In this document: positions 8,436 to 43,209 of the stretch, in pieces
Layout of the letters: each line of letters begins with the position of its first letter
Numbering within the stretch: position 1 is the stretch's first letter
NCBI GenBank assembly: GCA_038204565.1
Contig: JBBRCU010000011.1
Coordinates: 1,511 to 65,510, forward strand
Source of the DNA: Candidatus Limnocylindrales bacterium
GTDB lineage: Bacteria; Chloroflexota; Limnocylindria; Limnocylindrales; CSP1-4
Length of the DNA stretch: 64,000 nt
Direction: 5' to 3'
Made by a program: the position numbers and the translations under genes
The notes under the pieces: model-generated
What the model was told of the DNA's origin: nothing
Database searches by the model: none
The model's input: the letters and a program-made list of their open reading frames with translations, nothing else

Positions 8436-10475
8436 TCAGCCGGCGCCGAGAACCTCGAAGGCGTCGATCGCGACCATCGGCCGGCCGGCGGTGCCGAGGG
8501 CCTTGACCACGATCGTGTGCGCGCCGGCGGTGACGCTCCGGACCAGGAGCATTCGACGCGCGACGAATGACGCTCCGGACTGATCGATCGTCGCGACCCA
8601 GTGGCCGTCGACGTAGACCGCGGACCGTCCGCGACCGGGGCCCCTCGGGCCGACGATGACGACCGCCGACCCACTGAACCGGAAGGTTGCGGTCGGCCCC
8701 GCCGTTCGGCTGTAGTGGACCGTTCCGCCGATATAGGCCGTCGCCGCCGCGGAACCCCACGAGCCTCGATAGGCGATCGAGGCCGCAGTGTCCCCGATCA
8801 TCGAGCCCCGGACGGTGGGCGCCGCGGTCCATCCACCGACCCGACCGGCCAGGTCGACCGCGCGGGCCCGGAACGTGTAGCGGTGCCCGCTGACGAGCGA
8901 CACCACCCGGCCCGTTGAGGTCGGAGTGGCGAGACTCAACGAGGTCCACGCGGCTCCGTCGACGCTGATCTGGAGGTCATACCGGCGCAGGCCATCACTC
9001 GTCCGGGCCAGACCGATATGGACGGCCACGGGGACCCGGCCGGGCGTAACCGACGTGCTGGCGACGCGGACGGTCGGGGCTGTCGTGACGGGGGCGGCGG
9101 TGGTGCCACCGGTGGTCCCACCGGACGAGCCACCGGACGAGCCGCCCGAACTTCCACCGGTCGTTCCACCGGGGGCCGGCGCGGCTGCCCCCGAACCGTA
9201 GAGCCAGTCGGTGAAGCCGATGGCCCGGCCGATACCGGCGCCCTGCGTCGGAATCGTCGTGCCGTAGCGGAGATTCAGCAGCCAGGGCATCTGGCGACTC
9301 GTGTTGGTGGCGTTCCAGCCCGTGCCGCCGGCAGCCGCGGATCGGCTGACGATCGCAGCGGCGCGCTTGAGCCCGGTAGCCGACCAGCCCCAAGCGTCCG
9401 GATAGCCGTTTCGATACAGCAGTTCCGTCTGGAGCCCGACGCCCTGGATCGCCTCGAGCTGGTAGGGGATCCCGGGGTCGGACGGTGGCCACCGGAGCGA
9501 CCCGCCGCGGCTGATGTCGGCCGCGATTCCGCCATCCAGGTTGACCCCGGACTTCACGCAGCCGCCGTCCTCAGGGGTGTACGTCGTCACAACCCCAGTG
9601 CAGGACCAGGTCAGCGCTGCCGACGTGAGGTTGGTAGTGAACCCGGCATACGCCGTGCGGTCGCCGAGGAAGCCCCGGGTCACGAGCGCTGCGGACGCGA
9701 GATCTGCCTGGTCGCCGAGGTACAGGTCGGCCGCGATCCGCGACGCGCCGGCGTAGGCGCCCCAGTTGTTCGGCGAGCTTCGGTGCGTCCCGACGAGCGA
9801 ATTCCAGATCGGGTGGCCACCGATGTTCTTTGTCCGGATCGCGCTCAGCCAGGATCGGAAGGTCGCGTCGTCGGTCCCCGCCAGGCCGGCGAGGTTGGCG
9901 GCCAGCACATAGGCCGTCAGCTGCCGCCCGAGGGCCAGGGCAGCGTTCGTGCAACCGACGCGCTGGGTCGGTAGGGCGGCCATGATGGCGGCCCTGGCCT
10001 TGCTCCCATACGACGCGATGCCGGTCCGGGCATATACCAGAGCGGCGGCCAACGTCCGGACATGGTGGCTGGCGTTGATGTCGCAGAGGTCGGGAGCCGG
10101 TAGAGCCGCATCGGCGACCGTCTTCAGGGCGGTCCAGGCGGCCCCGCTGGTGGGCTTGCTGAGGAGCTCGCTCCGCGGCATGAGGATGTAGGTGGAGGCC
10201 GCCGCGACGGGGGCGGTCGCCGGGACGTTGCCGCCGAGCGTCGCGACGAGGACGACGGCGAGTATCCAGCGCTGCCCGGGGCGGGCAGGTCGACGGAGGG
10301 CTGGGATCCGGCGACGTCGGGCGGGCTCGGCCGGCTCGGGTCGGTTCCGGCAGGTGGCTGCCAGATGGTGGTGTGCCGGGCTCGGCGGCGGCTGGGCGCC
10401 GCTCGGGCTTCCGTGATCGATGACCTCGACGTTCGGGCCAGACGCCATCGCGGCGCCGCGATTCTCCGATCGCAT
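8436..10475 (-). CDS. Secreted alginate-lyase-like (alpha/alpha toroid) protein + Gly/Ser/Thr linker + Fn3-like + C-terminal beta-sandwich module
   Basis: ATG 10475 is preceded by GAGAGGAG. A signal-anchor (WILAVVLVATLGG) is followed by a lyase-like region with NNWGAYAGASRIAADLYLGD. The linker reads GGTTGGSSGGSSGGSSGGTTGGTT. The C-terminus (HRYTFRARAVDLAGR ... VYVDGHWVATID ... TIVVKALGTAGRP) is homologous to the C-terminus of 25687-28692. The ORF-track extension up to 11183 looks non-coding. Confidence 0.75.
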   Translation of the reverse strand: MRSENRGAAMASGPNVEVIDHGSPSGAQPPPSPAHHHLAATCRNRPEPAEPARRRRIPALRRPARPGQRWILAVVLVATLGGNVPATAPVAAASTYILMPRSELLSKPTSGAAWTALKTVADAALPAPDLCDINASHHVRTLAAALVYARTGIASYGSKARAAIMAALPTQRVGCTNAALALGRQLTAYVLAANLAGLAGTDDATFRSWLSAIRTKNIGGHPIWNSLVGTHRSSPNNWGAYAGASRIAADLYLGDQADLASAALVTRGFLGDRTAYAGFTTNLTSAALTWSCTGVVTTYTPEDGGCVKSGVNLDGGIAADISRGGSLRWPPSDPGIPYQLEAIQGVGLQTELLYRNGYPDAWGWSATGLKRAAAIVSRSAAAGGTGWNATNTSRQMPWLLNLRYGTTIPTQGAGIGRAIGFTDWLYGSGAAAPAPGGTTGGSSGGSSGGSSGGTTGGTTAAPVTTAPTVRVASTSVTPGRVPVAVHIGLARTSDGLRRYDLQISVDGAAWTSLSLATPTSTGRVVSLVSGHRYTFRARAVDLAGRVGGWTAAPTVRGSMIGDTAASIAYRGSWGSAAATAYIGGTVHYSRTAGPTATFRFSGSAVVIVGPRGPGRGRSAVYVDGHWVATIDQSGASFVARRMLLVRSVTAGAHTIVVKALGTAGRPMVAIDAFEVLGAG

Positions 10476-11147
10476 GATGCTCCTCTCTACCAGAACGCCG
10501 TCTGGGGACGGCGAACGCAGGGACGGGGCGCAGCCCGGCGCGGAGACCGGGGTCGCCGTGGATATCGGGACCGACATGGGGTGATCCCGAATCGTCGGGC
10601 CGCGACCGGGTTCCATGACGGAAGGCTGGGGGTCCCGCCCGGTGGGCCGACGATCGGTCCAGTCTGCACGTCCGAGAGCGATCGCGCTTGCCGGGAACGG
10701 ACCACGACCCGGAAGCCCCCGGCCCAGTCGCGAGTTCTTCGTTCGGCCCGGTCGTCGCATGCCTCGCCCATCCGCCGTAGGACCATCGGGTGAGCCGGTC
10801 CGGTGGCGATTGGTGAGGCCGGAGGTCGTCCGGCCTGGTGCGCGCCGTGGCCGTTCCCGGTGCGTCGATCCATGGCGGTGACGATCTCGCCAGTGACAGC
10901 CGACCCGGAGCCCGGGTAGCTTCGCGGTCGTCTCGCAAGGTCGGCAAGGGGAGCCGGCCAAGAGGGTACGAACAGCCAACCCCACGGCGACGTGGGTGCA
11001 CGGAACGCCCAGTGACTCCGTCGGAGTTTGACCGGGCTGCCGAAACCGTCTGCGGACGCGAGCGATGACGCCGGGCTCACGGCCTCGATCGATCGCCTCC
11101 GGCCCACCCGGGCGCTCCGCGCCCGCCGACCGCCACCCGGAGGATCC

Positions 11148-12278
11148 ATGCCCACCGTCGTTGCCGCCTCCAGTCCGCTCCACCTGCCGACCGCCGGGCG
11201 CGACCGCGATCGCCTGCGCGATTGGCTCGCGACGGGCGCCATGATGCTCATCGGGGCGGCCCTCCTCCTGCCGTTCACGCCCGCTCGCGCCTCTTCCGGC
11301 AGCGTTCTCATCTCGCCCGCCGCGATCCGGGTGTTACCCACGAGCGGTCCGGCGTGGGCGAGCCTGCTGGCCTACGCAAATGCCGCCCCCGGAACGGCGA
11401 ACATCGCCGACCAGGATTCGAACCATGACGTCCGGACCCTGGCGGAGGCCCTCGTCTTCGCTCGCACCGGCACTGCCTCCTATCGGACACGGGCCATCGC
11501 CAACATCCGGGCCGCAGTCGGGACCGAGGCCGGCGGACGAACCCTCGCCCTGGCCCGCAACCTGCCGAGCTACGTGATCGCGGCCGACCTTGTGGATCTC
11601 GTCAGGGCCGACCCGGCCTTCGACTCCGGGACATTCCGGCCGTGGCTCCGGAGCCTGCTGACGAAGGTCATGGCGGACGGCAAGAACCTCCGCCAGATCC
11701 ACGAGCAGCGGCCCAATAATTGGGGGACCCACGCCGGGGCGGCTCGGGCAGCCATCGCGGCTTACCTCGGCGACGGGGCCGAGATGGCTCGGACTGCGAC
11801 GGTCTTCCGCGGCTGGCTCGGCGATCGCACTGCCTATGCGGGCTTCAAGTACGGCAGTGACTCGTCGTGGCAGATGAATGCCGCGCAGCCGGTCGCGATC
11901 GACGCGTCAGGCACGGCCAAGTCGTACGACGCCACGAAGATCAGCCTCGACGGAGCGCTGCCCGACGAAATGCGGCGGGGCGGATCCTTCCAGTGGGCGC
12001 CGACCTATACCGGCTACCCCTGGGAGGCGCTGCAGGGTGCCGTCCTCCAGGCGGAGATCCTTCATCAGGCCGGGTACGACACGTGGTCCTGGTCGAACAA
12101 GGCACTCTACCGGGCGGCCCGCTTCCTGGACGTGACCGCGAAGTGGCCGGCGGTCGGCGACGATCGCTGGCAGCCGTGGCTGATCGATGCCCGGACCGGT
12201 GGCAACCTCCCCCGGCCGGCAACGACGTCGCCGGGCAAGAACTTCGGCTACGCCGACTGGCTCTACGGCGGCGGCTGA
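11148..12278 (+). CDS. Secreted alginate-lyase-like protein (paralog of the N-domain of 8436-10475)
   Basis: ATG 11148 follows GGAGG. It has a signal-anchor and aligns by eye with 8436-10475 over its whole length (HDVRTLAEALVFARTG; NNWGTHAGAARAAIAAYLGD; GDRTAYAGF; DWLYGGG). Confidence 0.75.
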   Translation: MPTVVAASSPLHLPTAGRDRDRLRDWLATGAMMLIGAALLLPFTPARASSGSVLISPAAIRVLPTSGPAWASLLAYANAAPGTANIADQDSNHDVRTLAEALVFARTGTASYRTRAIANIRAAVGTEAGGRTLALARNLPSYVIAADLVDLVRADPAFDSGTFRPWLRSLLTKVMADGKNLRQIHEQRPNNWGTHAGAARAAIAAYLGDGAEMARTATVFRGWLGDRTAYAGFKYGSDSSWQMNAAQPVAIDASGTAKSYDATKISLDGALPDEMRRGGSFQWAPTYTGYPWEALQGAVLQAEILHQAGYDTWSWSNKALYRAARFLDVTAKWPAVGDDRWQPWLIDARTGGNLPRPATTSPGKNFGYADWLYGGG

Positions 12279-12321
12279 CCCGAGCGAATCGGCGGGCCTC
12301 CCTTCGGGGCCCGGCCGCTGC

Positions 12322-13923
12322 TCAGCCCGAGACCGGCGTCCCCGACACCCGCCCTCGCCGGATCCTTGCAACCGCCGTTCGGCCGCGCCGCGGGGCGGAC
12401 GTCGCCCCAGCCGCCGCGGTTGCGGGCGCCACGTCGGGCTCCTCCAGCCGCAGCCCGAGGTAGGCCGCGGCACCCGCGACCGCCAAGACGAGCCAGAAGT
12501 AGCGGGCATAGCTCAGATGAAGGAAGAGCCCCGTCGTCATGTACGTCACGACCGCGAGGAAGAGCCCCGTCGCCATGGCCGCCACGTCCGGTCTCGAGAC
12601 GAGCCACCGCCGCCGAACCCGGATCAGGTCACGCAGGGTCAGGCCAAGAATGCCCATGAACGAGGCGAGCCCGAGGATGCCCGTCTCCGATGCGATGTGG
12701 AGGTACAGGTCGTGGGCCTGCCGGTCCGCGTTCAGGACGCGGATTCCGACATCGTCGGCATAGAGCCGGTAGTACGACGGGAAGCGACCCGGTCCGACGC
12801 CGATCAACGGGTGGTCCGCGAAGACGAGGAGCGCGGCGATGCCTTCGGTCGCGCGGCTGAGGACGGCGCCGTCCGCCGCGGCGCCGCTGCTGTCACCCGT
12901 CAGGATCGCGGTGAGATCGACGAGAGAGCCGACGCGGTTGCCGTAGGTCGGGACCGCGATCAGGAGCGCTGCGGCGGCGATCCCGACCAGCAGCACCTGG
13001 AGTGGCCGGATGTAGCCCATCGCGATCATGATCACGAGGACCAGGGCGAACCCGACGGCGGCGCCGCGGGAGAACGTGAGAGCCACACCCACGGAGATCG
13101 CCGCCGCGGCCGCCAGCGCCAGGAAGCGCGGCCAGCGCCGGCGGGCGCTCACCGCCCAGAACAACCCGAGCGGCACGAGCATCAGCATGATCTGGGCGTA
13201 GCGATTCTTCTCACCGATCGGGCCGGCCAGGCGCGGCTGGGTGTCTGCCGGCCCGGTACCCGTGTTGATCACGGCCGCGCTCAACTGGGCGAACCCGCCG
13301 TAATCGTTGGTGTAGGTCTTCGTTGCGTCCTGGTAGAACGACAGCGCCCCGAGGATCGCCCCGACAGCCAGCAGGATCCACACGACCCAGCGGAGGGTGT
13401 CGATCGAGCGGATCGAATTGATGATCAGGAAGTACAGGCCGATGCCTTCGACCAGGAACGTCGTGAGCTCAGTGAACGCCGACTGCACGTCGTCGGCGAA
13501 GAGCGTGCCGAGGATCTGCACCAACAGGAAGACAACGATGAGCGGGAACGCCGAGGTGACGACCACGGGGCGCTTCCGGACGACCAGCTCGTAGCCGACC
13601 GGGACCACGAGGAGAATCGGGACAGCCAGCGCGGCGAACGCCGGGACGCCGTGGAACTGGACGGCGATGGTCGCGGCATTGCTGTAGATCACGCCGACGA
13701 CCACGAACGCCGCGATATCCGGGCGGATCGCCATCGAGATGGCCAGCAAGGTCGCCCCGACCGCGGCGATGGCCAGGACGGGGTTGTTTCCGCCGATCGC
13801 TCCGACTCCTGCCGACATCGCGACCGCCGCAAGCAGGACGACCACGACCGCCGGGGGACGCGCCCGCGCGGAACCTCCGCCGGTCTCGTTCGGCGCCCCT
13901 GCCCGCGCCGCCGCGGAGATCAA
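12322..13923 (-). CDS. O-antigen ligase/polymerase (Wzy-like) multi-pass membrane protein
   Basis: Ten or more hydrophobic segments and a large loop with GPIGEKNRYAQIML...TFSRGA typical of the Wzy_C/O-antigen ligase family. The start is uncertain: TTG 13923 overlaps the GT2 stop, and ATG 13818 is an alternative. Confidence 0.8.
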   Translation of the reverse strand: MISAAARAGAPNETGGGSARARPPAVVVVLLAAVAMSAGVGAIGGNNPVLAIAAVGATLLAISMAIRPDIAAFVVVGVIYSNAATIAVQFHGVPAFAALAVPILLVVPVGYELVVRKRPVVVTSAFPLIVVFLLVQILGTLFADDVQSAFTELTTFLVEGIGLYFLIINSIRSIDTLRWVVWILLAVGAILGALSFYQDATKTYTNDYGGFAQLSAAVINTGTGPADTQPRLAGPIGEKNRYAQIMLMLVPLGLFWAVSARRRWPRFLALAAAAAISVGVALTFSRGAAVGFALVLVIMIAMGYIRPLQVLLVGIAAAALLIAVPTYGNRVGSLVDLTAILTGDSSGAAADGAVLSRATEGIAALLVFADHPLIGVGPGRFPSYYRLYADDVGIRVLNADRQAHDLYLHIASETGILGLASFMGILGLTLRDLIRVRRRWLVSRPDVAAMATGLFLAVVTYMTTGLFLHLSYARYFWLVLAVAGAAAYLGLRLEEPDVAPATAAAGATSAPRRGRTAVARIRRGRVSGTPVSG

Positions 13924-15167
13924 GACGCGAGGTCCACGCCGTTGTCGGCCCGGATGTCGCCGAGTTCCGATCCGGAACCCGGTCCCCGCCGGGGGTCGGC
14001 GCCGGGCGCCCGCTGCGGCTCCCACCGGTCGATCCGGCGGCCGCGCATGACGTTCACCGCGGCGTGCAGGGCGGCGAGGTTCACCAGGCAGAAATACGCC
14101 GGGAAGGCCACCAGCTTCGACTTGGCCACAGCCTGTCCGCGGGCGAGGACAGCGACGGCGGCGAGGCCATAGAACAGCACCTGGCCGGCCATCGCGAGCC
14201 GGTAGAGGGGGCCCGAACGGACCAGGAACGGGCTGCTCGCCGCCAGTGCGATCAGGGGGATCACCATCAGCCGGCGCAGCAGCTTGTGCCACAGCAGTTG
14301 CAGGGCATAGAAGCCGGTCAGGCGTGGATCGAGGAGCCGGCGCCGGAGCATCACGCCGCGCAGGCCACGGGTCATGACCCGGACCTTCCGTCCGTACTCG
14401 ACGCCGCCCGTGGCAGCGACGGGCTCATAGGCCGCCGCCTCCTCGACGAAGACAAGGCGGCGGCCGGCGTCGACGACCGCGGTCGAGGTGATGAAATCGT
14501 CGGTCACACCGTCGGGAACGGGCGGAATCAGGTCGCGACGGACGGCGTAGATGGCTCCGGTCGCCGAGATGACATTCCCGGAGCTGCTCTCGGCCCGCTT
14601 CAACATCCGGTCCAGATCCCAGTAGCCGCGCTCCCCGCGGGCCATGCCGCCGGCGCCACCACGAAGGTAGCGCTGGTCCCCGGCGACGCCACCGACGCCG
14701 GGATCGGCGAACGGCCGGACGATCGCTCGGATCGTCGCGGCCGTGAACATGCTGTTGGCGTCGGAGAACACCACGATCTCGCCCGTTGCCTCCGCGAGAG
14801 CCGCGTTGAGCGCCGCCGCCTTGCCGACGCGTGGCAGGTCGAGCACACGGACCGAGGTGCTCGCGAACACCGTGGCGGCCGCGACCGTCCCGTCGGTCGA
14901 TCCGTCCGAGGCGACGATGACCTCGAGCCGGTCGGCCGCATAGTCGCTGGCAAGGAGGTTTGCCAGCTTGGTCCCGATGCTCGGTTCCTCGTTGTGGGCG
15001 GCGACGACGACGCTCACCGTCGGCTCGATGTCGGCAGCCGCGACCGGATGGCGGATGAGTCGCCCGCGGACCAGGATCGCGGCCGGCATCACGACATAGG
15101 TCGCGGCGATCGTTCCGGCGGCCGACCAGAATACGGCGCCGGCGACCGGCCGGATCCAGCCGATCAT
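13920..15167 (-). CDS. Family 2 glycosyltransferase (membrane-associated, CESA-like)
   Basis: VSVVVAAHNEEPSI...VIVASDGSTDGT...VFSDAN (DxD-type), with C-terminal TM helices. ATG 15167 shares one base with the upstream TGA. Confidence 0.9.
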   Translation of the reverse strand: MIGWIRPVAGAVFWSAAGTIAATYVVMPAAILVRGRLIRHPVAAADIEPTVSVVVAAHNEEPSIGTKLANLLASDYAADRLEVIVASDGSTDGTVAAATVFASTSVRVLDLPRVGKAAALNAALAEATGEIVVFSDANSMFTAATIRAIVRPFADPGVGGVAGDQRYLRGGAGGMARGERGYWDLDRMLKRAESSSGNVISATGAIYAVRRDLIPPVPDGVTDDFITSTAVVDAGRRLVFVEEAAAYEPVAATGGVEYGRKVRVMTRGLRGVMLRRRLLDPRLTGFYALQLLWHKLLRRLMVIPLIALAASSPFLVRSGPLYRLAMAGQVLFYGLAAVAVLARGQAVAKSKLVAFPAYFCLVNLAALHAAVNVMRGRRIDRWEPQRAPGADPRRGPGSGSELGDIRADNGVDLAS

Positions 15168-17128: not shown

Positions 17129-18199
17129 TTGTCCCGGTGGATCGGCCGCGCGCGGCGAGCCGCGGTCGCCCAGCGGCACCTCGCCGCCGACCGACGTGAC
17201 GCGCCCCGGATCATCGCCGCGGTCGCGTCCGCTCGACCCGAGGCGGCGGGATGGGTCGTCCGAAGCGGACGATCCGCCGAACCGACGATTCTGCTGGTGG
17301 GGCCGCCGGGCGCCGGGCCGGAGGCCCTCATCCGCGTCGCCCACCAGCCGCGCACCGCGGACGGACTCCGTGCGGCGACGGCCGCCTTGACCACCCTTCG
17401 AAGGCATCTTGCTGGCGACCCGGCGGCAGAGCTCCTGCCTGAGCCGATCGGGACGGGCCGGATCGGCGGCCGATCGTGGGCGATGGAGGGCGTCCTTCCA
17501 GGGAGACCGGCCCAGGACATGCTCGAAACGCCCGACGACCGGTTCCGCATGCTCAGTGCGATCAGCACCGCGATCGGCCGTGTTCACGCCGTCACGTCGC
17601 AGACCGTGATCGTCGACGACCGCCTCAGCCGGTGCTGGGTCCGGGACCGAGTCGCGGCGGTCGCCGATATTCTCGACCGCCTGCCCGGACGGTCAAGCAG
17701 CCCGGGCCGACTGGCCGGCCTCGAGTCGGCTTTGACTGCCGAGCTGAGCGGTCGACAGCTCGCGATCGGCTGGATCCACGGCGACCTCTGGCCGGCCAAC
17801 GTCCTGGTCCAGGGTACGGAGCCTGTCGTCAGCGGCATCATCGACTGGGACAGTGCCGCGGCCGACGAGCTCGCGGTCCACGACCTCCTCCATCTCGCCA
17901 TCACGACCCGCCGGCTCATCGAGCGGACAGACCAGGGCGCCGTCCTGGCCGACCTCCTGAGCGGCGGCACGTGGACTCGTGACGACGAGGTCGTCCTTGG
18001 CCCGCCCGGCGCATTGGACTCGGCCGAGCGCGGCGTGGATGCGATGGACGACCGGCGGTTCGGCGGCATCCCGGCCCGGACGGCGGTGTGGTTGTACTGG
18101 CTGCGGTTCGTCGGCTCCAATCTGGCCCGCCATCAAGACCTGGCGACGGATCGTGCCTGGGTGGCGGCGAACGTCACGGCGGTTGCCGCATGCGCCTGA
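17129..18199 (+). CDS. Aminoglycoside/choline-kinase-like phosphotransferase (APH family)
   Basis: Catalytic loop WIHGDLWPANVLV and metal-binding GIIDWD. The start is tentative (TTG 17129, where GC3 rises). The frame is open far upstream across the divergent gene, so the ORF-track start at 15902 is not credible. Confidence 0.65.
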   Translation: MSRWIGRARRAAVAQRHLAADRRDAPRIIAAVASARPEAAGWVVRSGRSAEPTILLVGPPGAGPEALIRVAHQPRTADGLRAATAALTTLRRHLAGDPAAELLPEPIGTGRIGGRSWAMEGVLPGRPAQDMLETPDDRFRMLSAISTAIGRVHAVTSQTVIVDDRLSRCWVRDRVAAVADILDRLPGRSSSPGRLAGLESALTAELSGRQLAIGWIHGDLWPANVLVQGTEPVVSGIIDWDSAAADELAVHDLLHLAITTRRLIERTDQGAVLADLLSGGTWTRDDEVVLGPPGALDSAERGVDAMDDRRFGGIPARTAVWLYWLRFVGSNLARHQDLATDRAWVAANVTAVAACA

Positions 18200-35774: not shown

Positions 35775-36505
35775 TGGAGCTCGCCGACTCACCCTCCTCC
35801 GACTTCTCCCCGTCCAGTCGCCGTCGGGCGGGCCTGCTGCGGCAGCTCGCCGCGGGTCTTCTACCGGTCCTCGGAGCGGTCGCCGGCATCGGGATCGGGC
35901 AGCTGTCCGGCCAGTCCGGCGGCGTACCGGCGGTCGGGCTGCTGGTCGTGGCCGTCGGCGCGCTGTCCCTGGTGGCAGCCCGGGCCGTCGCTCGACCGTC
36001 GCCCGATCTCCTCCGGGTCAGCGGCCGCGATGCGCTCCGCAATGAGCTCGACCGGGCCCGCCGTCATCGACGGACCTTCGCCCTCGCCCGCCTCCGCCCG
36101 ATCGGCGGGTCTGCCGCCGCGGGCGCCATGGCAGGTGCTTCGGGCGGGATCGCGGCCGAGACGCTCCGGCTGATCGGGGCGTCCCTGCGCATCACGGATC
36201 GAGCCTGGCTCGATGACGACGATGTCGTCCTCCTGCTCCCTGAGGCTGACCGGGCGACTGCGGACGCCCTCGCCGACCGTCTTCGCCAGGCAGCCCCGGA
36301 CCGATTCACCGCAGACGTCGCGATCGCGGTCTTTCCCGACGACGGGCTGACGAGCGGCGCTCTGCTCGAGGCCCTGGACCGGGAGATGCATGGCGACCAG
36401 CTGCCGTCCCCGCTGCCTCGAACGGCGGCTGCGGCAACGGGCCTCGACGCGTCGCCCGTCGGGATTATCGGATCGGATGTTCGCGTCGAGTCCGGGGTGG
36501 GCTGA
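35771..36505 (+). CDS. Two-TM membrane protein with degenerate GGDEF-like domain (I-site RxxD retained, GGDEF replaced)
   Basis: LRITDRAWLDDDDVVLLLPEADRATADALADRLR aligns with the canonical GGDEF core RxxD-5aa-GGEEF-vvimPdt...A..iAerIR. The start overlaps the ugd stop, and the stop lies 4 nt before the priming transferase start. Confidence 0.5.
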   Translation: MMELADSPSSDFSPSSRRRAGLLRQLAAGLLPVLGAVAGIGIGQLSGQSGGVPAVGLLVVAVGALSLVAARAVARPSPDLLRVSGRDALRNELDRARRHRRTFALARLRPIGGSAAAGAMAGASGGIAAETLRLIGASLRITDRAWLDDDDVVLLLPEADRATADALADRLRQAAPDRFTADVAIAVFPDDGLTSGALLEALDREMHGDQLPSPLPRTAAAATGLDASPVGIIGSDVRVESGVG

Positions 36506-36509
36506 CCCG

Positions 36510-37121
36510 ATGATGGTCGTCGGACCCGGCTTCCTCCGGATCAAGCGGATCATCGACGTGACGCTCTGCATCCTCATCGCCCCCGCGGTCCTGGTCGTGC
36601 TCGGCGTGTGCGCGATCGCGATACGCCTCGACTCGCCCGGACCCGTGTTGTTCACGCAGCAGCGGACCGGGCGCCACGGGAACCGGTTCCCGATGTACAA
36701 GTTTCGCACGATGGTTCGCAACGCCGAGGAACTGAAGCCCTCCCTTCAGCACCTGAACATCCTGCCGCCACCGGACTTCAAGATTCCCGACGACCCGCGG
36801 ATCACCCGGGTCGGTCGGCTGTTGCGCAAGACGAGCCTGGATGAGCTGCCCCAGATCCTGAACGTCCTTCGCGGCGAAATGTCCCTTGTCGGGCCGCGCC
36901 CGACCTCGTTTCACGCAAGCACGTACAGTCTGTGGCACTCGCAGCGCCTCGAGGCCACGCCTGGCATCACTGGCTTGTGGCAGGTCGGTGGCAGGAACGA
37001 GCTCACGTTCGATGAGCGGAATCGGCTCGACGCCGAATACGTGCGGAACATGTCGCTTCGCCAGGATTTCAGGATTATGCTGTTGACAGTCGGATCCATC
37101 ATCAAGCGATCCGGCCACTGA
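36510..37121 (+). CDS. Undecaprenyl-phosphate sugar phosphotransferase (small bacterial sugar transferase, EpsL/WbaP-C type)
   Basis: [13 protein letters not shown]..., PMYKFRTM and [21 protein letters not shown]. Confidence 0.9.
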
Positions 37122-37146: not shown

Positions 37147-40029
37147 ATGACGACAACATGGCGGGCGGCCGCCATCGGCCTGGTGTTGACGTCGGTCACC
37201 CTTGTTGGCCCGGTGGCGGCGCAAGCGGCGGGCCGAGCCGCCCCCGCTGCATCGCCGCCAATCGTCTCGGCGATGCCCATCGCCGCTGCGCCGCCGCCGA
37301 CCGTCGTCACCCTCGACGCCGCGGCCCCGTTCGGGACCAAGGACCAGTCGTTCAGCGGGGCGAGCACCGCGCCCTCGGGCTCGAAGCCGGAGAGCAAGCT
37401 CTGGTTCAACGACGGGATCTGGTGGGCGTCGATGTGGAGCACGACGGCGGGCAGGTTCCACATCTTCCGGCTGAGTGACTCGGGCGACGTCTGGCAGGAC
37501 ACCGGGACGACGATCGACAGTCGAGGGAGCACCCGCGGCGACGCACTGTGGGATGGCAGCCATCTGTACGTCGCCTCCCACGATGTCGCCAGCGACTCCT
37601 CCCACAACACGATCAATCGGCCGGCCAGGCTGTATCGTTTCAGCTACAACAGCGGCACCCAGACCTACAGCCTCGACGGCGGCTTCCCGGCCACGATCAC
37701 GACGGTCGCCGTCGAGACGCTCGTCATCGACAAGGACTCGACGGGGACACTCTGGGCGACCTGGACGCAGGCCAAGAAGGTGGTGGTCTCCCACACGGTC
37801 GGCGATGACCTCACGTGGGGAAGCCCGTTCACCCCGGCAATCACCGGCGACACGAGCCTCAGCAGCGACGACGTCTCGTCCGTGATCGCCTTCGGCGGCA
37901 ACCGGATCGGCGTGATGTGGAGCAATCAGGCCAACTCCCATATGTACTTCAGCAGCCATCGCGACGGCGATCCGGACACGACGTGGTCGTCGAGCGAGGC
38001 GGCAACCTCCGGTTCGGGCAGCGCGGACGACCACATCAACCTGAAGACCGATTCGAGTGGTCGGGTCTATGCCGCTGTCAAATCGTCGTTCACGTCGAGT
38101 TCCGCCGTCCTGACCCACCTCCTCGTGCGGGCCGCGGGTGGCGGCTGGTCGGACCATCCATTCGGGACGGTGGCCAACAGCCAGACGCGTCCGATCGTCC
38201 TCGTCGACGAGCCGAACGCGACGCTCCACGTATTCGTGACGGGTGCATACCCCGGCAGGAGCAGTGGCCAGAGCGGGGGCACGATCTACGAGAAGACAGC
38301 GCCATTCTCGACGATGGACTTTCCGACTGGAGCGGGGACGCCTGTCATCCAGGACCCGTCCAGCGCGGACATGAACAACGCCAGTTCTACCAAGCAGAAT
38401 GTCGGGTCAGCGAGCGGCATCGTCGTCCTGGCCACGAACGACTCCACGGGGTTCTACTGGCACGCGAACGAGACGCTGGGCGGCGCCACCACCAGCCCGA
38501 CCGCGAACTTCAGCGGCACTCCGACCACTGGCAGCGCGCCGTTGACGGTGGCCTTCACGGACTCGTCCACCGGCGGACCGACCTCATGGGCCTGGGACTT
38601 CGGCGATCCCGGATCGGGCGTCGCCAACACCTCCACCAGCCGGAATCCAAGCCACGTCTACGCCGCGGACGGGACCTATACGATCAAGCTCACGGCGACC
38701 AACGGATCCGGCTCGGACACGAAGACCCGAACCGGATATGTCACGGTCGCCACCGCGCCGACGGCCGACTTCAGCGGCAGCCCGACGACAGGCAATGCCG
38801 GCCTGAACGTCTCGTTCACGGACTCGTCCGCCGGCGGACCGACCTCATGGGCCTGGGACTTCGGCGATCCCGGATCGGGCGTCGCCAACACCTCCACCAG
38901 CCAGAACCCGAGTCACGCGTATGCCGCCGATGGGACGTACACGGTCAAGCTGACCGCGACGAACACCAACGGCTCGACCTCGAAGACGCGGACCAACTAC
39001 ATCACCGTCGGCACCAAGCCGGTGGCCGATTTCAGCGGTTCGCCGACCAGCGGCAACGGCCCGCTGACCGTCAATTTCAGCGATGCGTCGACCGGCAGCC
39101 CGACATCATGGGCCTGGGACTTCGGCGATCCGGGATCGGGCGCGGGCAACACCTCGGCGGCCCCGAGCCCATCACACCTCTATTCGGCTGACGGGACCTA
39201 CACCGTGAAGCTGACCGTGTCGAACACGAGCGGCACGGACACCAGGACGCGGACCGGCTACATCATGGTCGGCACGGCTCCGACGGCGGCATTCACCGCC
39301 ACCCCGACGAGCGGATCCGCCCCTCTCACCGTGAGTTTCACGGACACATCGACGGGCAGCCCGACGTCATGGTCGTGGGACTTCGGTGATCCGGGATCCG
39401 GCTCGGCCAATGGGTCGACCGCCCGGAACCCGAGCCACATTTACAACGGTGGCGGGACCTACACGGTCAAGCTGACCGCGACCAATGCGAGCGGCTCCAA
39501 CACCGCCACCCAGACGAGCCTGATCAGCGTGACCTCGTCGGCCGTGACACTGACCCTCAACCCGATCGCCGACTCGTACGTGAGCTCGAGCAACCTCACC
39601 GGCAACTACGGGACGCAGACCACGATGAAGGTCCGTGAAGGCGACGGCTCGAGCAGCAACCCCAACTACCGGACCTATCTCAAGTTCGATGTCTCGGGTG
39701 TCTCCGGCACCGTCAGTGCCGTGACGCTCCGTCTGTTCGTGACGGACAGGTCAGCGAACCTGGAGTCCATCTATGTCGTCGGCAACAGCAGTTGGACCGA
39801 GACCGCGATCACGTATTCGAACGCGCCGGCGATCAACGGTAGCGCCGTGGGTACGACGAGCGGGGCTCCGCTCGGGGCATACGTCTCGATCACCCTCGTT
39901 CCCTCGAGTGTCAGCCCCGGCTCCTCGCCGCTGACCCTGGCGATCGAGAGCTCGGCCACGGACAGCTTCGTCGTCGCCAGTCGCGAAGACCCGACGAACA
40001 AGCCGCAGCTGATCGTTACGTTCCAGTAG
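37147..40029 (+). CDS. Secreted protein: paralogous propeller-like N-domain + 4 PKD domains + C-terminal DNRLRE/CBM-like domain
   Basis: Signal peptide (AIGLVLTSVTLVGPVAAQA). SKLWFNDGIWWASMW and WDGSHLYVASH match the two paralogs. Four 87-aa PKD repeats carry WAWDFGD. The C-terminus is ADSYVSSSNLTGNYG...YLKFDVSGV...SSWTETAITYSNAP. Confidence 0.85.
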   Translation: MTTTWRAAAIGLVLTSVTLVGPVAAQAAGRAAPAASPPIVSAMPIAAAPPPTVVTLDAAAPFGTKDQSFSGASTAPSGSKPESKLWFNDGIWWASMWSTTAGRFHIFRLSDSGDVWQDTGTTIDSRGSTRGDALWDGSHLYVASHDVASDSSHNTINRPARLYRFSYNSGTQTYSLDGGFPATITTVAVETLVIDKDSTGTLWATWTQAKKVVVSHTVGDDLTWGSPFTPAITGDTSLSSDDVSSVIAFGGNRIGVMWSNQANSHMYFSSHRDGDPDTTWSSSEAATSGSGSADDHINLKTDSSGRVYAAVKSSFTSSSAVLTHLLVRAAGGGWSDHPFGTVANSQTRPIVLVDEPNATLHVFVTGAYPGRSSGQSGGTIYEKTAPFSTMDFPTGAGTPVIQDPSSADMNNASSTKQNVGSASGIVVLATNDSTGFYWHANETLGGATTSPTANFSGTPTTGSAPLTVAFTDSSTGGPTSWAWDFGDPGSGVANTSTSRNPSHVYAADGTYTIKLTATNGSGSDTKTRTGYVTVATAPTADFSGSPTTGNAGLNVSFTDSSAGGPTSWAWDFGDPGSGVANTSTSQNPSHAYAADGTYTVKLTATNTNGSTSKTRTNYITVGTKPVADFSGSPTSGNGPLTVNFSDASTGSPTSWAWDFGDPGSGAGNTSAAPSPSHLYSADGTYTVKLTVSNTSGTDTRTRTGYIMVGTAPTAAFTATPTSGSAPLTVSFTDTSTGSPTSWSWDFGDPGSGSANGSTARNPSHIYNGGGTYTVKLTATNASGSNTATQTSLISVTSSAVTLTLNPIADSYVSSSNLTGNYGTQTTMKVREGDGSSSNPNYRTYLKFDVSGVSGTVSAVTLRLFVTDRSANLESIYVVGNSSWTETAITYSNAPAINGSAVGTTSGAPLGAYVSITLVPSSVSPGSSPLTLAIESSATDSFVVASREDPTNKPQLIVTFQ
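38497..39540 (+). repeat. Four tandem 261-nt coding repeats (PKD domains)
   Basis: The period is exactly 261 nt (starts at 38497, 38758, 39019, 39280). Repeats 1 and 2 share a 71-nt identical run (38571-38641 vs 38832-38902). Confidence 0.9.
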
Positions 40030-40135: not shown

Positions 40136-40903
40136 TCAGTTGCTGGCGGGTCCTTCGGATAGCCACGTGCGATCGAGCGCCCGTCGGATCACGAGTCCGC
40201 TGATCAGGATGCCGAGGTACAGGGTCAACTCCGGGAGCTCGCCGAATTCGGTGATGCGCTCGCCTGCGTCCGGCAGGAACGCGACCCGGAACCCCCGATA
40301 GGCGAACGGCAGGAAGAACAGCGTCGCGAGACAAAGCGGTGGGATGAGGAGCCGATCGAGGCCGAGCCGGTCCAGCCTGAACCCCGTTCGGATCCGGCTG
40401 CTCGCCCAGAGGATCGGGACGAGGAAGCCGTAGAGGCCAACCGTGCCCTCGCCGAGATTGAAGAACTTCTGCAGGCTCGTGATGTTGTGGATGTTGATCT
40501 CGCCCTGATGGTTCACATTCTTGAGGGCGTCGGGCGTGGTCAACCCGAGGAGGCGCTGACCCCATGAGATCTCCTCGCCGGCCACGACGAAACTCATCAG
40601 CGCGGCGAGGAGCAGGACCACGGCCAGGCGGGCCCGGCCCAGCCGCCTCGCGGTTCTGGCGGCGAGCGCGAACACCACCGACGCAGCGAGGATCGCGAAG
40701 AACTGCGTCCACTCGATGACGTGGTCCTCGTCGACGAGGAAGTGGTAGAGGTTCGGGTGCGGGACCGTCAGTGCGAGCAGGACCACCGCGATCGGCGGCG
40801 CGACGAGGAGCACGAGGGCCGCCACGGCGGGGATCCCCCAGCCGGCGGCATCCGCGCGTATCACCCTTTCGAGGCGGCGGAACGTGTCCAAGGCGTGACC
40901 CAC
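40136..40903 (-). CDS. Integral membrane protein, unknown function
   Basis: About 6 hydrophobic segments, high GC3, and the motif VAGEEISWGQRLLG. No family recognised. Confidence 0.6.
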   Translation of the reverse strand: MGHALDTFRRLERVIRADAAGWGIPAVAALVLLVAPPIAVVLLALTVPHPNLYHFLVDEDHVIEWTQFFAILAASVVFALAARTARRLGRARLAVVLLLAALMSFVVAGEEISWGQRLLGLTTPDALKNVNHQGEINIHNITSLQKFFNLGEGTVGLYGFLVPILWASSRIRTGFRLDRLGLDRLLIPPLCLATLFFLPFAYRGFRVAFLPDAGERITEFGELPELTLYLGILISGLVIRRALDRTWLSEGPASN

Positions 40904-41071: not shown

Positions 41072-42919
41072 TCAGGGGGCCGGGTTGACGACCACGAGCT
41101 GGCCGATGGAGACGAACGGCGCATTCGCCGTTGCGGTCGGAGCGCCCGTGTCGCCGGTGGCCGTGAGCCAGCGCGTGGCGACCTCGCTCGAGGCGAGATA
41201 CGTGCCGCCGGCGGACGCTGCCTCGGCGCCTTCGGTCATGCCGACCGGCGAAGCGATCGTGGTCGCCCGGGCCATGCCGAAGAGTCCGACAAGGACGCTC
41301 CCGGTCCGATTGGAGGCCGATGTCGCGGTCGTGATCGAGACCGACGACGCGACGTTCGTCGAGCCGCTCACGGCAGCGATCGGGTTCGTCGGATCGACGC
41401 CGCCGAACGCGCTGACGGTGCCGGCCGCGGACTCCTTCTTCGAGAAGGGCCAGGTCCAGCTGCTCGGCTCCGATCCGCCGGCCGTGTGTCGGTACACGAG
41501 CTGGGCGACCGTGGTGGAGATCGCATCCGAACGGATCAGGGTCCATCCGGCGGGAGCGGTCACTCTCGGCGACGTACCGCCGCGGATCGTGATGGCTGCG
41601 ATGAGGAGGTCACCCGCGGTCGTCCCGGCCGGCTTCAGCATCGACAGGGACGTGGTTGTCCCGTTGCCGGCCGCCGTCGAGCCGTGTCCGATGATGGCCG
41701 TGGATCCCGGGCTCGGCGTGGCGCTGGGCGTCGGAGTCACGCTCGGGAGCGGCGTCGAGTTCGGCGTCGAGTTCGGCGTCGGCGCCGGCGTCGCGGTGGG
41801 CTTGGCGGTCGCGGTTGCCGACGGACTCGGGGCCGAGGAGCCGCCTCCCGCAAACGCGCCGTACCCCTTGGCCACGGCATCGGCCGGGTTGAAGCCGGAG
41901 CAGCCGGCCGTCGAGTCGAACAGCGGATCGCGCGGGAAGACGTTGCCACCGCCGTCGGCGATGTTCGATCCGTCGATCATCTTCGTCGAGCTGAAGCCGA
42001 GGTTATTGGAGGCGACGTTGCCGGCGCCGGTCAGGCTGTAGCCGTAGATCAGGTGGTTCTCGAGGCTCCTGCCGAGGATGTTGTGATCGACTCGGTTGTT
42101 CCGCGACGCGCCGCTCATGCTCACGTTCTGGCTCGCGTTGAACATCGTGTTGTAGCTGATCGAGACGTTCTGGGTTCCGTTCGTCGTGCTGATCGACGCG
42201 GCCCCGAGCTTGACATTCCGGCCGTTGGTCGCGTTGAACAGCACGTTGTGATCGATCGAGCCGGGCCCGGCCGACAGGCCGCTGTTGACGTAGATGTTGT
42301 GATCCTGGTTCGTCGAGTTCGACGGGTACGTGTCGTGGATGCAGTTGTTCGTGATCCGCCAGTTCGACGGATTGGAGCCGACGAGGATTCCGGCGAAGCT
42401 GTGGGCTCCCCAGACCTCGCTGTTCTGGTAGGTCCAGTTCGACCCGCCGTTGAACTTGACCATGTGCTGTGACGCGTTGTCCGTGGCGCTGTCCCACGTG
42501 ACGTTGAGGCCGTCGATCGTCCACCAGGTCGGACCGCTGAGCCACATCAGCCCCTTGACGATGGGCCGCTCGCCCGTCGCGGCGCGGACGACGATCGGGG
42601 CGCTGGCGGTCCCGGCGTGGAGCGAGACCGAGACGTGTTCGACATAGGTCCCGCCGTGGACGATCAGGGTGTCGCCCGGGTTCAGTGAGGTCAGAGCATG
42701 CTGGATGGTCCGCCACGGGGCCGTCTCGGTGCCCGCCGCACCGTCCGATCCGGATGTCGAGACGGCGTAGGCGTTTCCGGCGGCGCGGACCTGGCCGATC
42801 GTGGTCAGGGCCAATGGGGCGAGCAGGCTGATCGACGTCAGGAGGGCGGCCCGTCGAAGGATCGGTCGGCCTCTTGATCGCCCTGCGGGGCGCGCGGAAA
42901 CAGGCATGGGCTGATGCAT
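41072..42919 (-). CDS. Secreted right-handed beta-helix (pectate-lyase-fold) protein + Pro/Thr linker + unassigned C-terminal domain
   Basis: Signal peptide (LLTSISLLAPLALTTIGQVRAAG). APWRTIQHALTSLNPGDTLIVHGGTY is typical of DUF1565/beta-helix proteins. NxxH/N-rich parallel-helix repeats follow, then the linker SPSATATAKPTATPAPTPNSTPNSTPLPSVTPTPSATPSP. ATG 42919 or 42907. Confidence 0.8.
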   Translation of the reverse strand: MHQPMPVSARPAGRSRGRPILRRAALLTSISLLAPLALTTIGQVRAAGNAYAVSTSGSDGAAGTETAPWRTIQHALTSLNPGDTLIVHGGTYVEHVSVSLHAGTASAPIVVRAATGERPIVKGLMWLSGPTWWTIDGLNVTWDSATDNASQHMVKFNGGSNWTYQNSEVWGAHSFAGILVGSNPSNWRITNNCIHDTYPSNSTNQDHNIYVNSGLSAGPGSIDHNVLFNATNGRNVKLGAASISTTNGTQNVSISYNTMFNASQNVSMSGASRNNRVDHNILGRSLENHLIYGYSLTGAGNVASNNLGFSSTKMIDGSNIADGGGNVFPRDPLFDSTAGCSGFNPADAVAKGYGAFAGGGSSAPSPSATATAKPTATPAPTPNSTPNSTPLPSVTPTPSATPSPGSTAIIGHGSTAAGNGTTTSLSMLKPAGTTAGDLLIAAITIRGGTSPRVTAPAGWTLIRSDAISTTVAQLVYRHTAGGSEPSSWTWPFSKKESAAGTVSAFGGVDPTNPIAAVSGSTNVASSVSITTATSASNRTGSVLVGLFGMARATTIASPVGMTEGAEAASAGGTYLASSEVATRWLTATGDTGAPTATANAPFVSIGQLVVVNPAP

Positions 42920-43209
42920 GGGACTTGCCTCGGTGTATCCGCTCGGCACATGAGCGGCTCGGCGGCGACCGTTGGGGTAGGTCACCGGTGCGCATCTGCA
43001 ACGTAGCGGCCGAGGCTTCCCTGCGGCTTATCCCCGGATGTCCGCTCGCTTCAACGGGATAGGCCCGGGATCACGTCACCCAAACGGCGGAGGGACCACC
43101 TGCAGCGCGCCTCTCGGGGTTCCAATGCGTCCTCCCATGCGAGCCGCCAGGCATCGGAGGAAGCCAGGTTCGCGAAACCGGCCGAGTCCGTGCCGGACCC
43201 GGCCGAGCT

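Follow-up and report, generated by a model that had tools for sequence, protein, structure and literature searches.

Exopolysaccharide (EPS) and capsule loci can carry a glycanase of their own, as known for alginate (AlgL), Psl (PslG), Pel (PelA) and succinoglycan (ExoK/ExsH), AlgL likewise being encoded within its biosynthetic operon, and the propellers of RbmC and Bap1 are eight-bladed. The Vibrio cholerae vps-rbm cluster is under the control of cyclic di-GMP (c-di-GMP) (PMC11451748, PMC10102183, PMC11695861). Among polysaccharide lyase (PL) and glycoside hydrolase (GH) families, PL42, GH145, PL24 and PL25 share an anterior His/His/Tyr/Arg site that acts on uronates, with His85, His105, Tyr150 and Arg166 as its catalytic residues (PMC8377490), and the founding member of the carbohydrate-binding module (CBM) family CBM96 binds alginate (PMC9971899). 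Here, we analyzed a stretch of 64,000 nucleotides, hereafter referred to as the window, from a Candidatus Limnocylindrales bacterium (Chloroflexota; GenBank assembly GCA_038204565.1, contig JBBRCU010000011.1), in which positions 8436-42985 form one contiguous block of about 22 glycan-related genes, with 22 confident gene calls from a self-trained codon model. We consider it likely that this island is a vertically inherited, modular locus for the Wzx/Wzy-type synthesis of an acidic heteropolysaccharide containing glucuronic acid/galacturonic acid (GlcA/GalA) in Limnocylindria-like Chloroflexota, bundled with extracellular proteins that act on the polymer.

Scans against Pfam and NCBIfam recovered all gene classes that an earlier note, made from the letters of the window, had listed for the region, at or near the positions it gave and exactly so for the priming transferase (36510-37121). 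Six further conserved genes had been absent from that note (17297-18199, 22409-23833, 33117-34010, 35771-36505, 40136-40864 and a small open reading frame (ORF), 25083-25412), as had the neighboring TasA/SipW-like operon. Strand changes divide the region into nine co-directional blocks (Table 1), in line with the "at least 8 transcription units" proposed before. Neighboring genes overlap by 1-10 nt (Wzy/GT2/Wzz-like; APH/GT4 a/GT4 b; Wzx/NTase-P-loop; Ugd/GGDEF-like) or are separated by gaps of 4-10 nt (GGDEF-like/primer and propeller B/epimerase). The biosynthetic logic is textbook Wzx/Wzy, and it is accompanied by eight secreted or anchored proteins, as the note had counted, all of which carry a basic and hydrophobic N-terminal segment (lyase-like C, 23814-24998, only with a longer start).

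We scanned one genome per species with a profile of the propeller domain, which yielded 79 loci (labelled with L-numbers) from Limnocylindria, other Chloroflexota, Gaiellales, Thermoleophilia/Solirubrobacterales, Iamiaceae and the cultured Micromonospora, Dactylosporangium and Catellatospora (Micromonosporaceae), and searched the island proteins against these propeller loci by tblastn. Among these loci, the most propeller C-like ones, a core glycan homolog lay within 10 kb in 53 of 79, and a homolog of Wzx, Wzy, Wzz or the primer was present in 37; another type of secreted protein was found in 28 and at least two propeller genes in 31. Propeller, lyase-like, CBM4_9 and beta-helix homologs recur beside the same core genes in Limnocylindria and Actinomycetota. 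This comparison had been set beforehand as the refuting test, and it revealed that the secreted-protein genes are not independent insertions; the synteny across two phyla supports the view that the region is one functional glycan island in which secreted proteins accompany a Wzx/Wzy core.

The conserved genes fall into two modules. Module A comprises lyase-like B, Wzy, GT2, the Wzz-like protein, GT4 and Wzx (in some loci also the nucleotidyltransferase (NTase)/P-loop gene) around a propeller-CBM96 gene. Its gene order was checked in L033, L043, L058 and L074, and its homologs were seen in the hit matrix only in L029, L049, L054 and L061, the last of which lacks lyase-like B. Module A spans Chloroflexota and Actinomycetota, the housekeeping flanks are not conserved, and these unconserved flanks therefore provide an internal control against mere relatedness. 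Module B consists of propeller B, the epimerase, the CBM4_9 protein, the zinc-ribbon protein, Ugd, the GGDEF-like protein, the primer and propeller C. This order is kept in L004, L005, L011 and L015; L006 keeps it too, except that the block from CBM4_9 to the primer is inverted. L031, L039 and L080 hold module B homologs according to the hit matrix (gene order uninspected). The adjacency of propeller B and the epimerase was observed in L004-L006, L011, L015, L034 and L074, and L034, L046 and L074 contain the two modules next to each other in different orders. At the right junction, homologs of the metallo-beta-lactamase (MBL)-fold gene and of f33 share loci with island genes in seven relatives; in L005 and L015, MBL-f33 comes immediately after propeller C, and in L011 a TasA/SipW operon separates them. 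Judged by gene content and order, the island thus appears to be an old, modular and occasionally rearranged chromosomal locus to which the secreted-protein genes are integral. The term "mosaic" used earlier fits only insofar as it refers to two conserved, reshuffled modules, and not in the sense of recent foreign insertions.

The supply of uronic acids is indicated by Ugd and the epimerase. The best PDB matches of the epimerase (30865-31833) were 6zl6/6zla (3.4e-68) and then MoeE5 6kv9 (7.7e-62), which we take to be UDP-GlcA 4-epimerases, followed by a dTDP-glucose 4,6-dehydratase entry (5u4q, 5.7e-49) and the best UDP-glucose 4-epimerase (5.4e-44). It is thus probably a UDP-glucuronate 4-epimerase, which would give UDP-GalA. 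The earlier proposal of an acidic, uronic-acid-containing polymer, based on ugd and lyase-fold proteins, is strengthened by these epimerase relatives, the CBM96 module and two independent uronate-enzyme fold families, namely those matched by the lyase-like proteins and by the propellers.

The three propellers are mutual paralogs (E 1e-27 to 1e-57; A versus C, 33%, 7.5e-57; B versus C, 31%, 2.6e-54) that share an N-terminal domain of about 400 aa with the motif SKLW(Y/F/R)NDG(A/I)WW, visible by eye. This domain had no match in Pfam or NCBIfam, and against all PDB chains (including 7esn, 5muk and 6byp) a single sequence gave none and a 36-sequence profile recovered only PKD domains. The family comprises more than 2,000 matches among 90%-identity clusters and, among 1.84 billion 50%-identity representatives, 2,674 at E <= 1e-3 and 1,172 at E <= 1e-30; across it the propeller domain is usually fused to PKD and CBM96 modules. 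Accordingly equipped is propeller C, with PKD_4 at 9e-68, a 261-nt repeat present four times, and CBM96 well above threshold (PF24517 3.6e-29, 102 bits versus a cut-off of 26; NCBIfam DNRLRE domain, 78.6 versus 34). In propeller A, two of the immunoglobulin (Ig)-like repeats were detected as a 306-nt DNA repeat and a third was read by eye, and the fn3 and CE2_N matches are weak. A further propeller of the BNR/Asp-box (sortilin-Vps10-like) type with classical BNR repeats is encoded 6 kb past the island (49185-50261, minus strand) and is unrelated to the island propellers.

An AlphaFold2 (AF2) model of propeller C (predicted local distance difference test (pLDDT) 91.8; predicted template modeling score (pTM) 0.92) is all-beta, with 28 strands forming seven blades. 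The best Foldseek matches were the PL42 L-rhamnose-alpha-1,4-D-glucuronate lyase 7esn/7esk (template modeling (TM) score 0.57-0.59; 7esn 0.59), followed by GH145 5muk/5mum/5mvh (0.57-0.58), the putative neuraminidase 4irt, the PL24 ulvan lyase 6byp (0.45-0.48) and sialidases. Conserved residues in the family include H96, R115, H222, H247 and H390. Moreover, 16 charged or polar residues are common to the three paralogs (D75, R77, D83, D87, R115, Y118, D128, D148, S149, H222, D224, D305, K334, T366, Q368 and H390), and most of them are invariant or near-invariant in the 36-sequence family alignment. Many polar positions that are otherwise conserved, including H96, D192/D193, D245-H247 and R299, vary among the paralogs. 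As other family-conserved positions differ in A and B, the alignment suggests three diverged specificities. A bolder proposal, which we hold only tentatively and think somewhat doubtful as a whole, is that the propellers represent a large family of seven-bladed glycan-cleaving enzymes, related to PL42/GH145/PL24 at fold level only. Operons for surface-glycan assembly in soil phyla with a single membrane (Limnocylindria, Gaiellales, Thermoleophilia and Micromonosporaceae) would have them as obligate partners outside the cell, and they would form a new CAZy-type family processing the cell's own acidic polymer. The synthesis of this polymer would be gated by a degenerate-GGDEF receptor not recognized before and built into the ugd-primer operon. 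Our literature search returned no report on a seven-bladed lyase acting on exopolysaccharide.

The second fold family is formed by the three lyase-like proteins. Lyase-like C is the most canonical PF05426 member (Table 1) and has weak PDB sequence matches to the PL38 enzyme BoPL38 and to PL5 AlgL and A1-III. Lyase-like B has 1,394 homologs; its AF2 model (pLDDT 87.9) folds as an alpha toroid apart from a single small beta insertion, and its top 49 Foldseek matches are all PL17/PL38/PL39/PL5 or glycosaminoglycan (GAG) lyases (TM 0.43-0.51, E >= 1.7e-3). Lyase-like A, whose start codon was taken from the Logan gene call, matches PF05426 weakly (0.0093; 15.9 bits, below the cut-off of 22.2) and is 40% identical to lyase-like B over 346 aa (1e-61); it also matches CE2_N (2e-4). 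An FN3 plus CE2_N-like cassette is common to lyase-like A (8439-9116) and propeller A (28060-28689; 36% over 218 aa, 7e-25), which therefore points to domain shuffling between the two secreted families. In PL5, the catalytic motif is Asn-His (NNH) with Arg and Tyr. The lyase-like family has a near-invariant H151 three residues after NNW, an invariant R233 and a nearly invariant Y246, with a beta-hairpin insertion before the conserved Arg...Tyr region. On the basis of the model, the term "lyase-like fold" is justified for these PF05426-type proteins, and lyase chemistry is putative. In the beta-helix-like protein, N-x-x-I/V repeats are visible, and its C-terminal domain of about 180 aa (41072-41790) had no family match. 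This domain recurs on three ORFs in L052 (11880-12389, 13459-14019 and 16177-16932) and can therefore be regarded as an uncharacterized mobile module.

Within the assembly core, the chain-length (polysaccharide copolymerase, PCP) protein at 15167-16840 had been called "Wzz/BY-kinase-like". The first half of this label is plausible: two hydrophobic segments flank a periplasmic-type domain, which fits Wzz/PCP, and Wzz (4e-5, 24.2 bits) and GNVR (5e-5, 23.7 bits) match just below the Pfam cut-offs, with NCBIfam polys_exp_MPA1 (4.5e-16, far below its cut-off) and the eps_fam tyrosine autokinase (4.9e-9, below cut-off) in addition. The second half does not, as a Walker A motif GxxxxGK[ST] was not found in the protein (aligned segment GGV-SDGDTAIV) and neither was a C-terminal tyrosine cluster, there being one Tyr in the tail of about 150 residues. 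The Lys-Ser/Thr pair is also missing in four homologs, from L033, L074, L043 and L058, and no tyrosine cluster occurs in the homologs. The kinase-like domain is therefore predicted to be a conserved pseudo-kinase. The membrane-bound GT2 (13920-15167) was considered as a processive synthase given its topology and PgaC/NodC-like matches, but a clear QxxRW motif is lacking and it was kept as an ordinary GT2. No island or flank gene matched an outer-membrane exporter (Wza/outer-membrane polysaccharide exporter (OPX); Poly_export, SLBB), an absence that is expected if the host envelope is single-membrane.

Several accessory genes travel with the propellers. NTase/P-loop homologs were present in 34 of 82 propeller loci, which makes this the commonest island gene beside propellers, and APH-like homologs in 16 of 82, including Micromonosporaceae; both genes adjoin propellers also in Micromonosporaceae loci without Wzx/Wzy. 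For example, Micromonospora sp. NPDC093277 (L038) carries a co-directional operon (8898-17800) of a GT2, a propeller of 437 aa without extra modules, FemAB/Acetyltransf_6, NTase/kinase and APH genes (12315-14632), a double GT2 (766 aa) and a polysaccharide deacetylase. A Micromonospora NTase/P-loop homolog matched NTP_transf_5 (1.4e-7) and Thymidylate_kin (1.7e-4). The NTase/P-loop protein and the APH-like kinase may make or attach an activated substituent. Homologs of the zinc-ribbon membrane protein (33117-34010) occur in 18 loci, syntenic with Ugd, and its C-terminal domain had no PDB match by profile and no Pfam relative.

The membrane-anchored protein at 35771-36505, conserved in 12 loci, gave no meaningful PDB match and a faint GGDEF_2 match in Pfam when searched as a single sequence. 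A profile of 10 syntenic homologs matched diguanylate cyclase structures (3ign, 7.9e-5; 7e6g, 1.9e-4), with the family-invariant R140 and D143 aligned to the RxxD inhibitory site and GGEEF aligned to "DDg-dV", so that GG[DE]EF is lost. Weak matches within the family were found to GGDEF_2 (4 of 10 members) and PelD_GGDEF (1 of 10; 0.036). With this pattern, as in PelD, the protein is a candidate c-di-GMP receptor.

Table 1. Features of the glycan island and of the operon on its left, with the nine co-directional blocks numbered from left to right
Feature	Coordinates	Strand	Co-directional block	Architecture and matches
TasA/SipW-like operon, 3 genes	5814..8338	+		Camelysin/TasA-family protein, SipW-type (archaeal-type) signal peptidase, uncharacterized secreted protein
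Lyase-like A, secreted/anchored	8436..10475	-	1: lyase-like A	Signal-anchor, (alpha/alpha)-toroid lyase-like domain, Gly/Ser linker, FN3-like, C-terminal CE2_N-like beta-sandwich (CBM-like)
Lyase-like B, secreted	11148..12278	+	2: lyase-like B	PF05426 2.2e-15, 57.3 bits versus cut-off 22.2; beside the Wzy gene in relatives
Wzy-type polymerase	12322..13923	-	3: Wzz-like + GT2 + Wzy	Wzy_C 2.7e-18, above gathering; about 12 hydrophobic segments
Membrane-bound GT2	13920..15167	-	3	Glycos_transf_2 9.5e-24; Glyco_tranf_2_3 1.3e-18; one N-terminal and three C-terminal hydrophobic segments
Chain-length (PCP) protein, degenerate kinase-like C-terminal domain	15167..16840	-	3	Sub-cut-off Wzz/GNVR matches
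APH-fold (eukaryotic-like) small-molecule/sugar kinase homolog	17297..18199	+	4: APH + GT4 a + GT4 b, 17297-20726	APH 5.6e-14; co-directional with the two GT4 genes
GT4 a	18190..19398	+	4	Glyco_trans_1_4 1.2e-32; Glyco_transf_4 2.6e-9
GT4 b	19395..20726	+	4	Glycos_transf_1 2.7e-32
Wzx flippase	20767..22416	-	5: NTase/P-loop + Wzx	Polysacc_synt 5.2e-20, above gathering; also Polysacc_synt_3, MatE
Cytoplasmic two-domain protein, PF14907-like nucleotidyltransferase + P-loop (GPDGSGKST), thymidylate-kinase-like	22409..23833	-	5	NTP_transf_5 1.4e-4; weak generic P-loop matches; overlaps the Wzx gene start
Lyase-like C	23814..24998	+	6: lyase-like C, then propeller A + propeller B + epimerase, 25687-31833	PF05426 5.7e-25, 88.8 bits versus cut-off 22.2; most canonical member
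Propeller A, secreted	25687..28692	+	6	Signal peptide, seven-bladed propeller, Ig-like repeats of about 100 residues, FN3, CE2_N-like beta-sandwich
Propeller B, anchored/secreted	28839..30854	+	6	Propeller plus a C-terminal domain of its own (about 190 aa); 10-nt gap to the epimerase gene
NAD-dependent short-chain dehydrogenase/reductase (SDR) epimerase	30865..31833	+	6	Epimerase 3e-57
Membrane-anchored CBM4_9 protein	31900..33120	-	7: zinc-ribbon protein + CBM4_9 protein	CBM_4_9 2e-6; N-terminal hydrophobic segment, helical region, Pro/Ser linker, C-terminal CBM4_9; in 16 loci
Conserved membrane protein with zinc ribbon	33117..34010	-	7	Two hydrophobic segments; CxxC...CxxC (DZR_2 0.018); C-terminal domain of about 100 aa; motif G-x-RY...LGP
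Ugd, UDP-glucose 6-dehydrogenase	34347..35774	+	8: Ugd + GGDEF-like + primer + propeller C, 34347-40029	Three UDPG_MGDP_dh domains: 6e-42, 3e-28, 5e-29
Membrane-anchored degenerate GGDEF-like protein	35771..36505	+	8	Two hydrophobic segments; 4-nt overlap with ugd; 4-nt gap to the primer gene
Primer, small (203 aa) polyprenyl-phosphate sugar-phosphate transferase	36510..37121	+	8	Bac_transf 1.8e-62; EPS_sugtrans 2.7e-76
Propeller C, secreted	37147..40029	+	8	Signal peptide, seven-bladed propeller, four PKD, CBM96; follows the primer gene
Small polytopic membrane protein	40136..40864	-	9: beta-helix protein + small membrane protein	Four hydrophobic segments; no Pfam/NCBIfam match; homologs only in L004 and L061
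Right-handed beta-helix-like secreted protein	41072..42985	-	9	DUF1565 6e-4; Chondroitinase_B 0.009; PelN N-terminus 4e-9; GH120 3vst 4e-7; PL6 weak

By homology, Ugd makes UDP-GlcA, from which the epimerase would give UDP-GalA. Borrowing the order of the pathway from the established Wzx/Wzy model, we propose that the small phosphoglycosyl transferase would prime polyprenyl phosphate, and that one GT2 and two GT4 enzymes would complete a repeat of about four sugars. Wzx would flip this repeat across the membrane, and Wzy would polymerize it together with the chain-length protein, whose kinase-like domain is probably catalytically dead; that no outer-membrane exporter is encoded would fit a single-membrane envelope. 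Outside the cell, the three toroid lyase-like proteins, the three propellers and the beta-helix protein may trim, release or size the uronate polymer, while the CBM96, CBM4_9, PKD, FN3 and CE2_N-like modules could hold the secreted proteins on the polymer or cell surface. Synthesis might be coupled to c-di-GMP through the degenerate GGDEF protein, and the APH-like kinase and the NTase/P-loop protein may add or activate a substituent. We infer the roles of the secreted proteins as enzymes or scaffolds, and they could have binding or scaffold functions instead of the degradative ones suggested earlier.

Several of our own observations weigh against this scheme. The 79 loci are the most propeller C-like ones, and the co-occurrence figures describe that subfamily, without a formal random-gene control. 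The propeller TM scores reach only 0.57-0.59, six-bladed sialidases also match, and searches of Pfam, NCBIfam and PDB gave no sequence-level link to any CAZy-type family. The fold matches of the lyase-like proteins are marginal (E >= 1.7e-3), their family has an invariant P-N-N-W-G where PL5 has the catalytic NNH, and secretion of lyase-like C by a signal-anchor depends on the longer start codon. In addition, the beta-helix evidence for 41072-42985 is weak, and the specificity of the epimerase is read from its best matches alone. In a rival reading, the propellers (and possibly further proteins of the secreted set) are no enzymes and serve as matrix scaffolds, lectins or adhesins, which bind the polymer and organize a biofilm matrix. 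The parallel would be the beta-propeller adhesins RbmC and Bap1 of Vibrio cholerae, encoded near the vps genes together with the beta-helix glycanase RbmB, and the TasA/SipW operon would supply fibers. Their modular, adhesin-like architecture (four PKD domains, FN3, Ig-like repeats and CBM modules) suits such a role, as do the missing sequence match to any catalytic family, the divergence of the paralogs at the polar positions listed above, the TasA/camelysin and SipW-type operon alongside, here and in L011, and the precedent of exopolysaccharide-binding propeller adhesins (PMC10102183; PMC11451748). However, the best fold matches of the propeller are enzymes and not lectins, and the 16 retained charged or polar residues are more suggestive of an active site or metal site than of a shallow one of lectin type. 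The propellers of RbmC and Bap1 are also unrelated in sequence and have eight blades. We regard a scaffold role as rather unlikely, and it is compatible with the main explanation. A slightly lower probability attaches to a wall-linked, teichuronic-acid-like polymer with the secreted proteins as wall-remodeling enzymes. The core composition corresponds one-to-one to the tua operon (TuaB/D/E/F roles, PMC9018123), the GT2 matches TuaG weakly (3.7e-5), no outer-membrane export gene is encoded, and inheritance of the locus is vertical, with a fixed place on the chromosome. This likeness is compositional, however, and generic to Wzx/Wzy loci with Ugd rather than a matter of orthology; no LytR-CpsA-Psr (LCP) ligase (LytR_cpsA_psr) was found among the approximately 50 scanned genes of the window, although one elsewhere in the genome is possible, and the CBM96, PKD and FN3 proteins and the GGDEF-like regulator are more typical of matrix/EPS systems.

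The two remaining explanations concern the origin of the secreted proteins, and both were rejected. That the lyase-like, propeller and beta-helix proteins serve together in the catabolism of external polyuronides (pectin, alginate or gum-type glycans), similar to a polysaccharide utilization locus (PUL) and merely lying beside a biosynthetic locus, seems very improbable to us: their fold relatives (PL5/17/38/39 and PL42/GH145/PL24) and CBM96 are indeed known above all from organisms that degrade polyuronides of plants and algae, but Pfam scans of the island found no sugar transporter, solute-binding protein, unsaturated-uronide hydrolase, KduI/KdgK-type or uronate-catabolism gene, the secreted-protein genes are intermingled with biosynthetic ones at short distances, and the association with Wzx, Wzy, glycosyltransferases and the primer persists across two phyla. 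We give hardly any credence to the island being a mosaic gained recently by horizontal transfer, with the secreted-protein genes as insertions unrelated to it. The G+C content falls to 0.66-0.68 over 25-28 kb and 37-41 kb compared with 0.70-0.745 in the flanks, relatives differ in gene order, and in L011 the TasA/SipW operon is found at the opposite side. On the other hand, the stretches of low GC are those of the Ser/Thr/Asn-rich propeller genes, family scans and a repeat search found no integrase, insertion sequence (IS), transposase or flanking repeat in the island (its repeats are intragenic domain repeats only), no tRNA was confirmed, and the right junction common to seven relatives and both modules are conserved. 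The single tRNA candidate, a 94-nt tRNA-Leu(GAG) called by ARAGORN (32713-32806, plus strand), lies antisense inside the CBM4_9 gene, lacks an Rfam tRNA match at the gathering threshold and is probably a false positive.

Gene calls for the window (51 genes) came from the self-trained codon model, and independent gene calls on a Logan contig agree with them. With a window G+C of about 70%, raw ORF lists were swamped by spurious frames, and a simple filter on third-position G+C (GC3) was dropped as it failed to tell real genes apart. Window positions 5936-19144 are matched at 100% identity by an independent Logan assembly, and because of this at least the left part is no assembly artifact; one window protein was found at 100% identity in NCBI and in the Logan assembly of run SRR19962014. 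The nearest relatives are Candidatus Limnocylindrales and "uncultured Chloroflexia" metagenome-assembled genomes, with flank genes reaching 84% amino-acid identity. A promoter and terminator scan of 8-26 kb gave counts at shuffle level and was uninformative.

The left flank consists of fatty-acid metabolism genes followed by the three-gene operon 5814-8338 (Peptidase_M73 2.6e-11; TIGR02228 1.1e-22, above cut-off; SipW 2.7e-20), which resembles the Bacillus tapA-sipW-tasA matrix-fiber operon. The same operon is found in L011 at 13430-16044 with 65-73% identity, right after the propeller-CBM96 gene and thus on the opposite side of the island, and it may belong to the same surface or matrix program. 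In the right flank, the MBL-fold gene is accompanied by genes for a methyltransferase, MoaD-MoaE and an aminomutase, and the remainder up to 64 kb encodes ordinary metabolism. Further along, we observed a full-length MttB-family methyltransferase (54842-56368, plus strand; PF06253 7.5e-193) with no internal stop, presumably non-pyrrolysine and unrelated to the island, with a beta-eliminating lyase gene (52983-54050) near it, and a protein with a guanylate/adenylate-cyclase domain and TPR (60642-62753, minus strand). A similar cyclase-AAA_16-TPR protein lies beside a propeller gene in a metagenomic locus (L001, 11936-15016), possibly by coincidence.

Limnocylindria and their actinobacterial neighbors abound in soil and fresh water, mostly as uncultured bacteria with uncharacterized surface polymers, and our literature search returned nothing on Limnocylindria exopolysaccharide. 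The type of locus described here is conserved in two phyla, and the main acidic polymer of their matrix or wall may come from it. Its propeller family is a good candidate for a new polysaccharide-cleaving or -binding family; if the propellers were ordinary glycanases, the result would mainly be one more CAZy-type family. Homologous operons in culturable Micromonospora and Dactylosporangium offer an experimental handle.

Compared with known systems, the core of the island is identical in composition to tuaABCDEFGH of Bacillus subtilis, with a primer (TuaA), Wzx (TuaB), glycosyltransferases (TuaC/G/H), Ugd (TuaD), Wzy (TuaE) and a Wzz-like protein (TuaF) (PMC9018123), and with one GT2 and two GT4-type transferases in both. 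In contrast, no LCP ligase lies near the island, and tua encodes neither propeller, lyase or CBM proteins for secretion nor a GGDEF-like protein. The GGDEF-like protein of the island resembles PelD-type receptors in being membrane-anchored and GGDEF-like in fold, in having lost the catalytic motif and retained RxxD, and in lying inside an EPS locus, although it has no GAF domain and the similarity is weak (best PDB match 7.9e-5). Two of the three lyase-like proteins exceed the gathering threshold of the PF05426 superfamily (PL5 AlgL/A1-III), and the toroid model and exclusively uronate-lyase fold matches agree with it, whereas NNW in place of NNH, the beta-hairpin insertion and TM scores of only 0.43-0.51 set this family apart. 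The propellers share the seven-bladed fold with PL42/GH145/PL24/PL25 (FoRham1, BT3686, LOR_107), which are their best structural matches, and the island context implies a uronic-acid substrate for them too. Here the likeness is at fold level, without detectable sequence similarity, and known members are catabolic exo-enzymes on plant and algal glycans, not partners of biosynthetic loci.

The vps-rbm cluster of Vibrio cholerae offers the same combination of a Wzx/Wzy EPS set with a beta-helix glycanase (RbmB), propellers (RbmC/Bap1) and FN3-type proteins. There is no sequence relationship, however; the island propellers are seven-bladed and enzyme-like instead of eight-bladed lectin-type adhesins, the phyla and envelope types differ, and the link of the island to c-di-GMP consists of the degenerate GGDEF-like gene only. 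With EPS and capsule loci that carry a glycanase, the island shares the primer, glycosyltransferases, Wzx, Wzy and a probable chain-length protein, the sugar-nucleotide genes and a polymer-specific secreted glycanase in the locus (here putative). Where such loci have one or two secreted proteins, the island has seven or eight, which represent four folds and include three from a family without a sequence relative in Pfam, NCBIfam or PDB. It also differs in its dead kinase domain and missing outer-membrane exporter. What is unusual about the island is thus the number and conservation of its secreted partners, a large propeller family outside the searched libraries and structures, a dead kinase domain and an embedded degenerate GGDEF gene.

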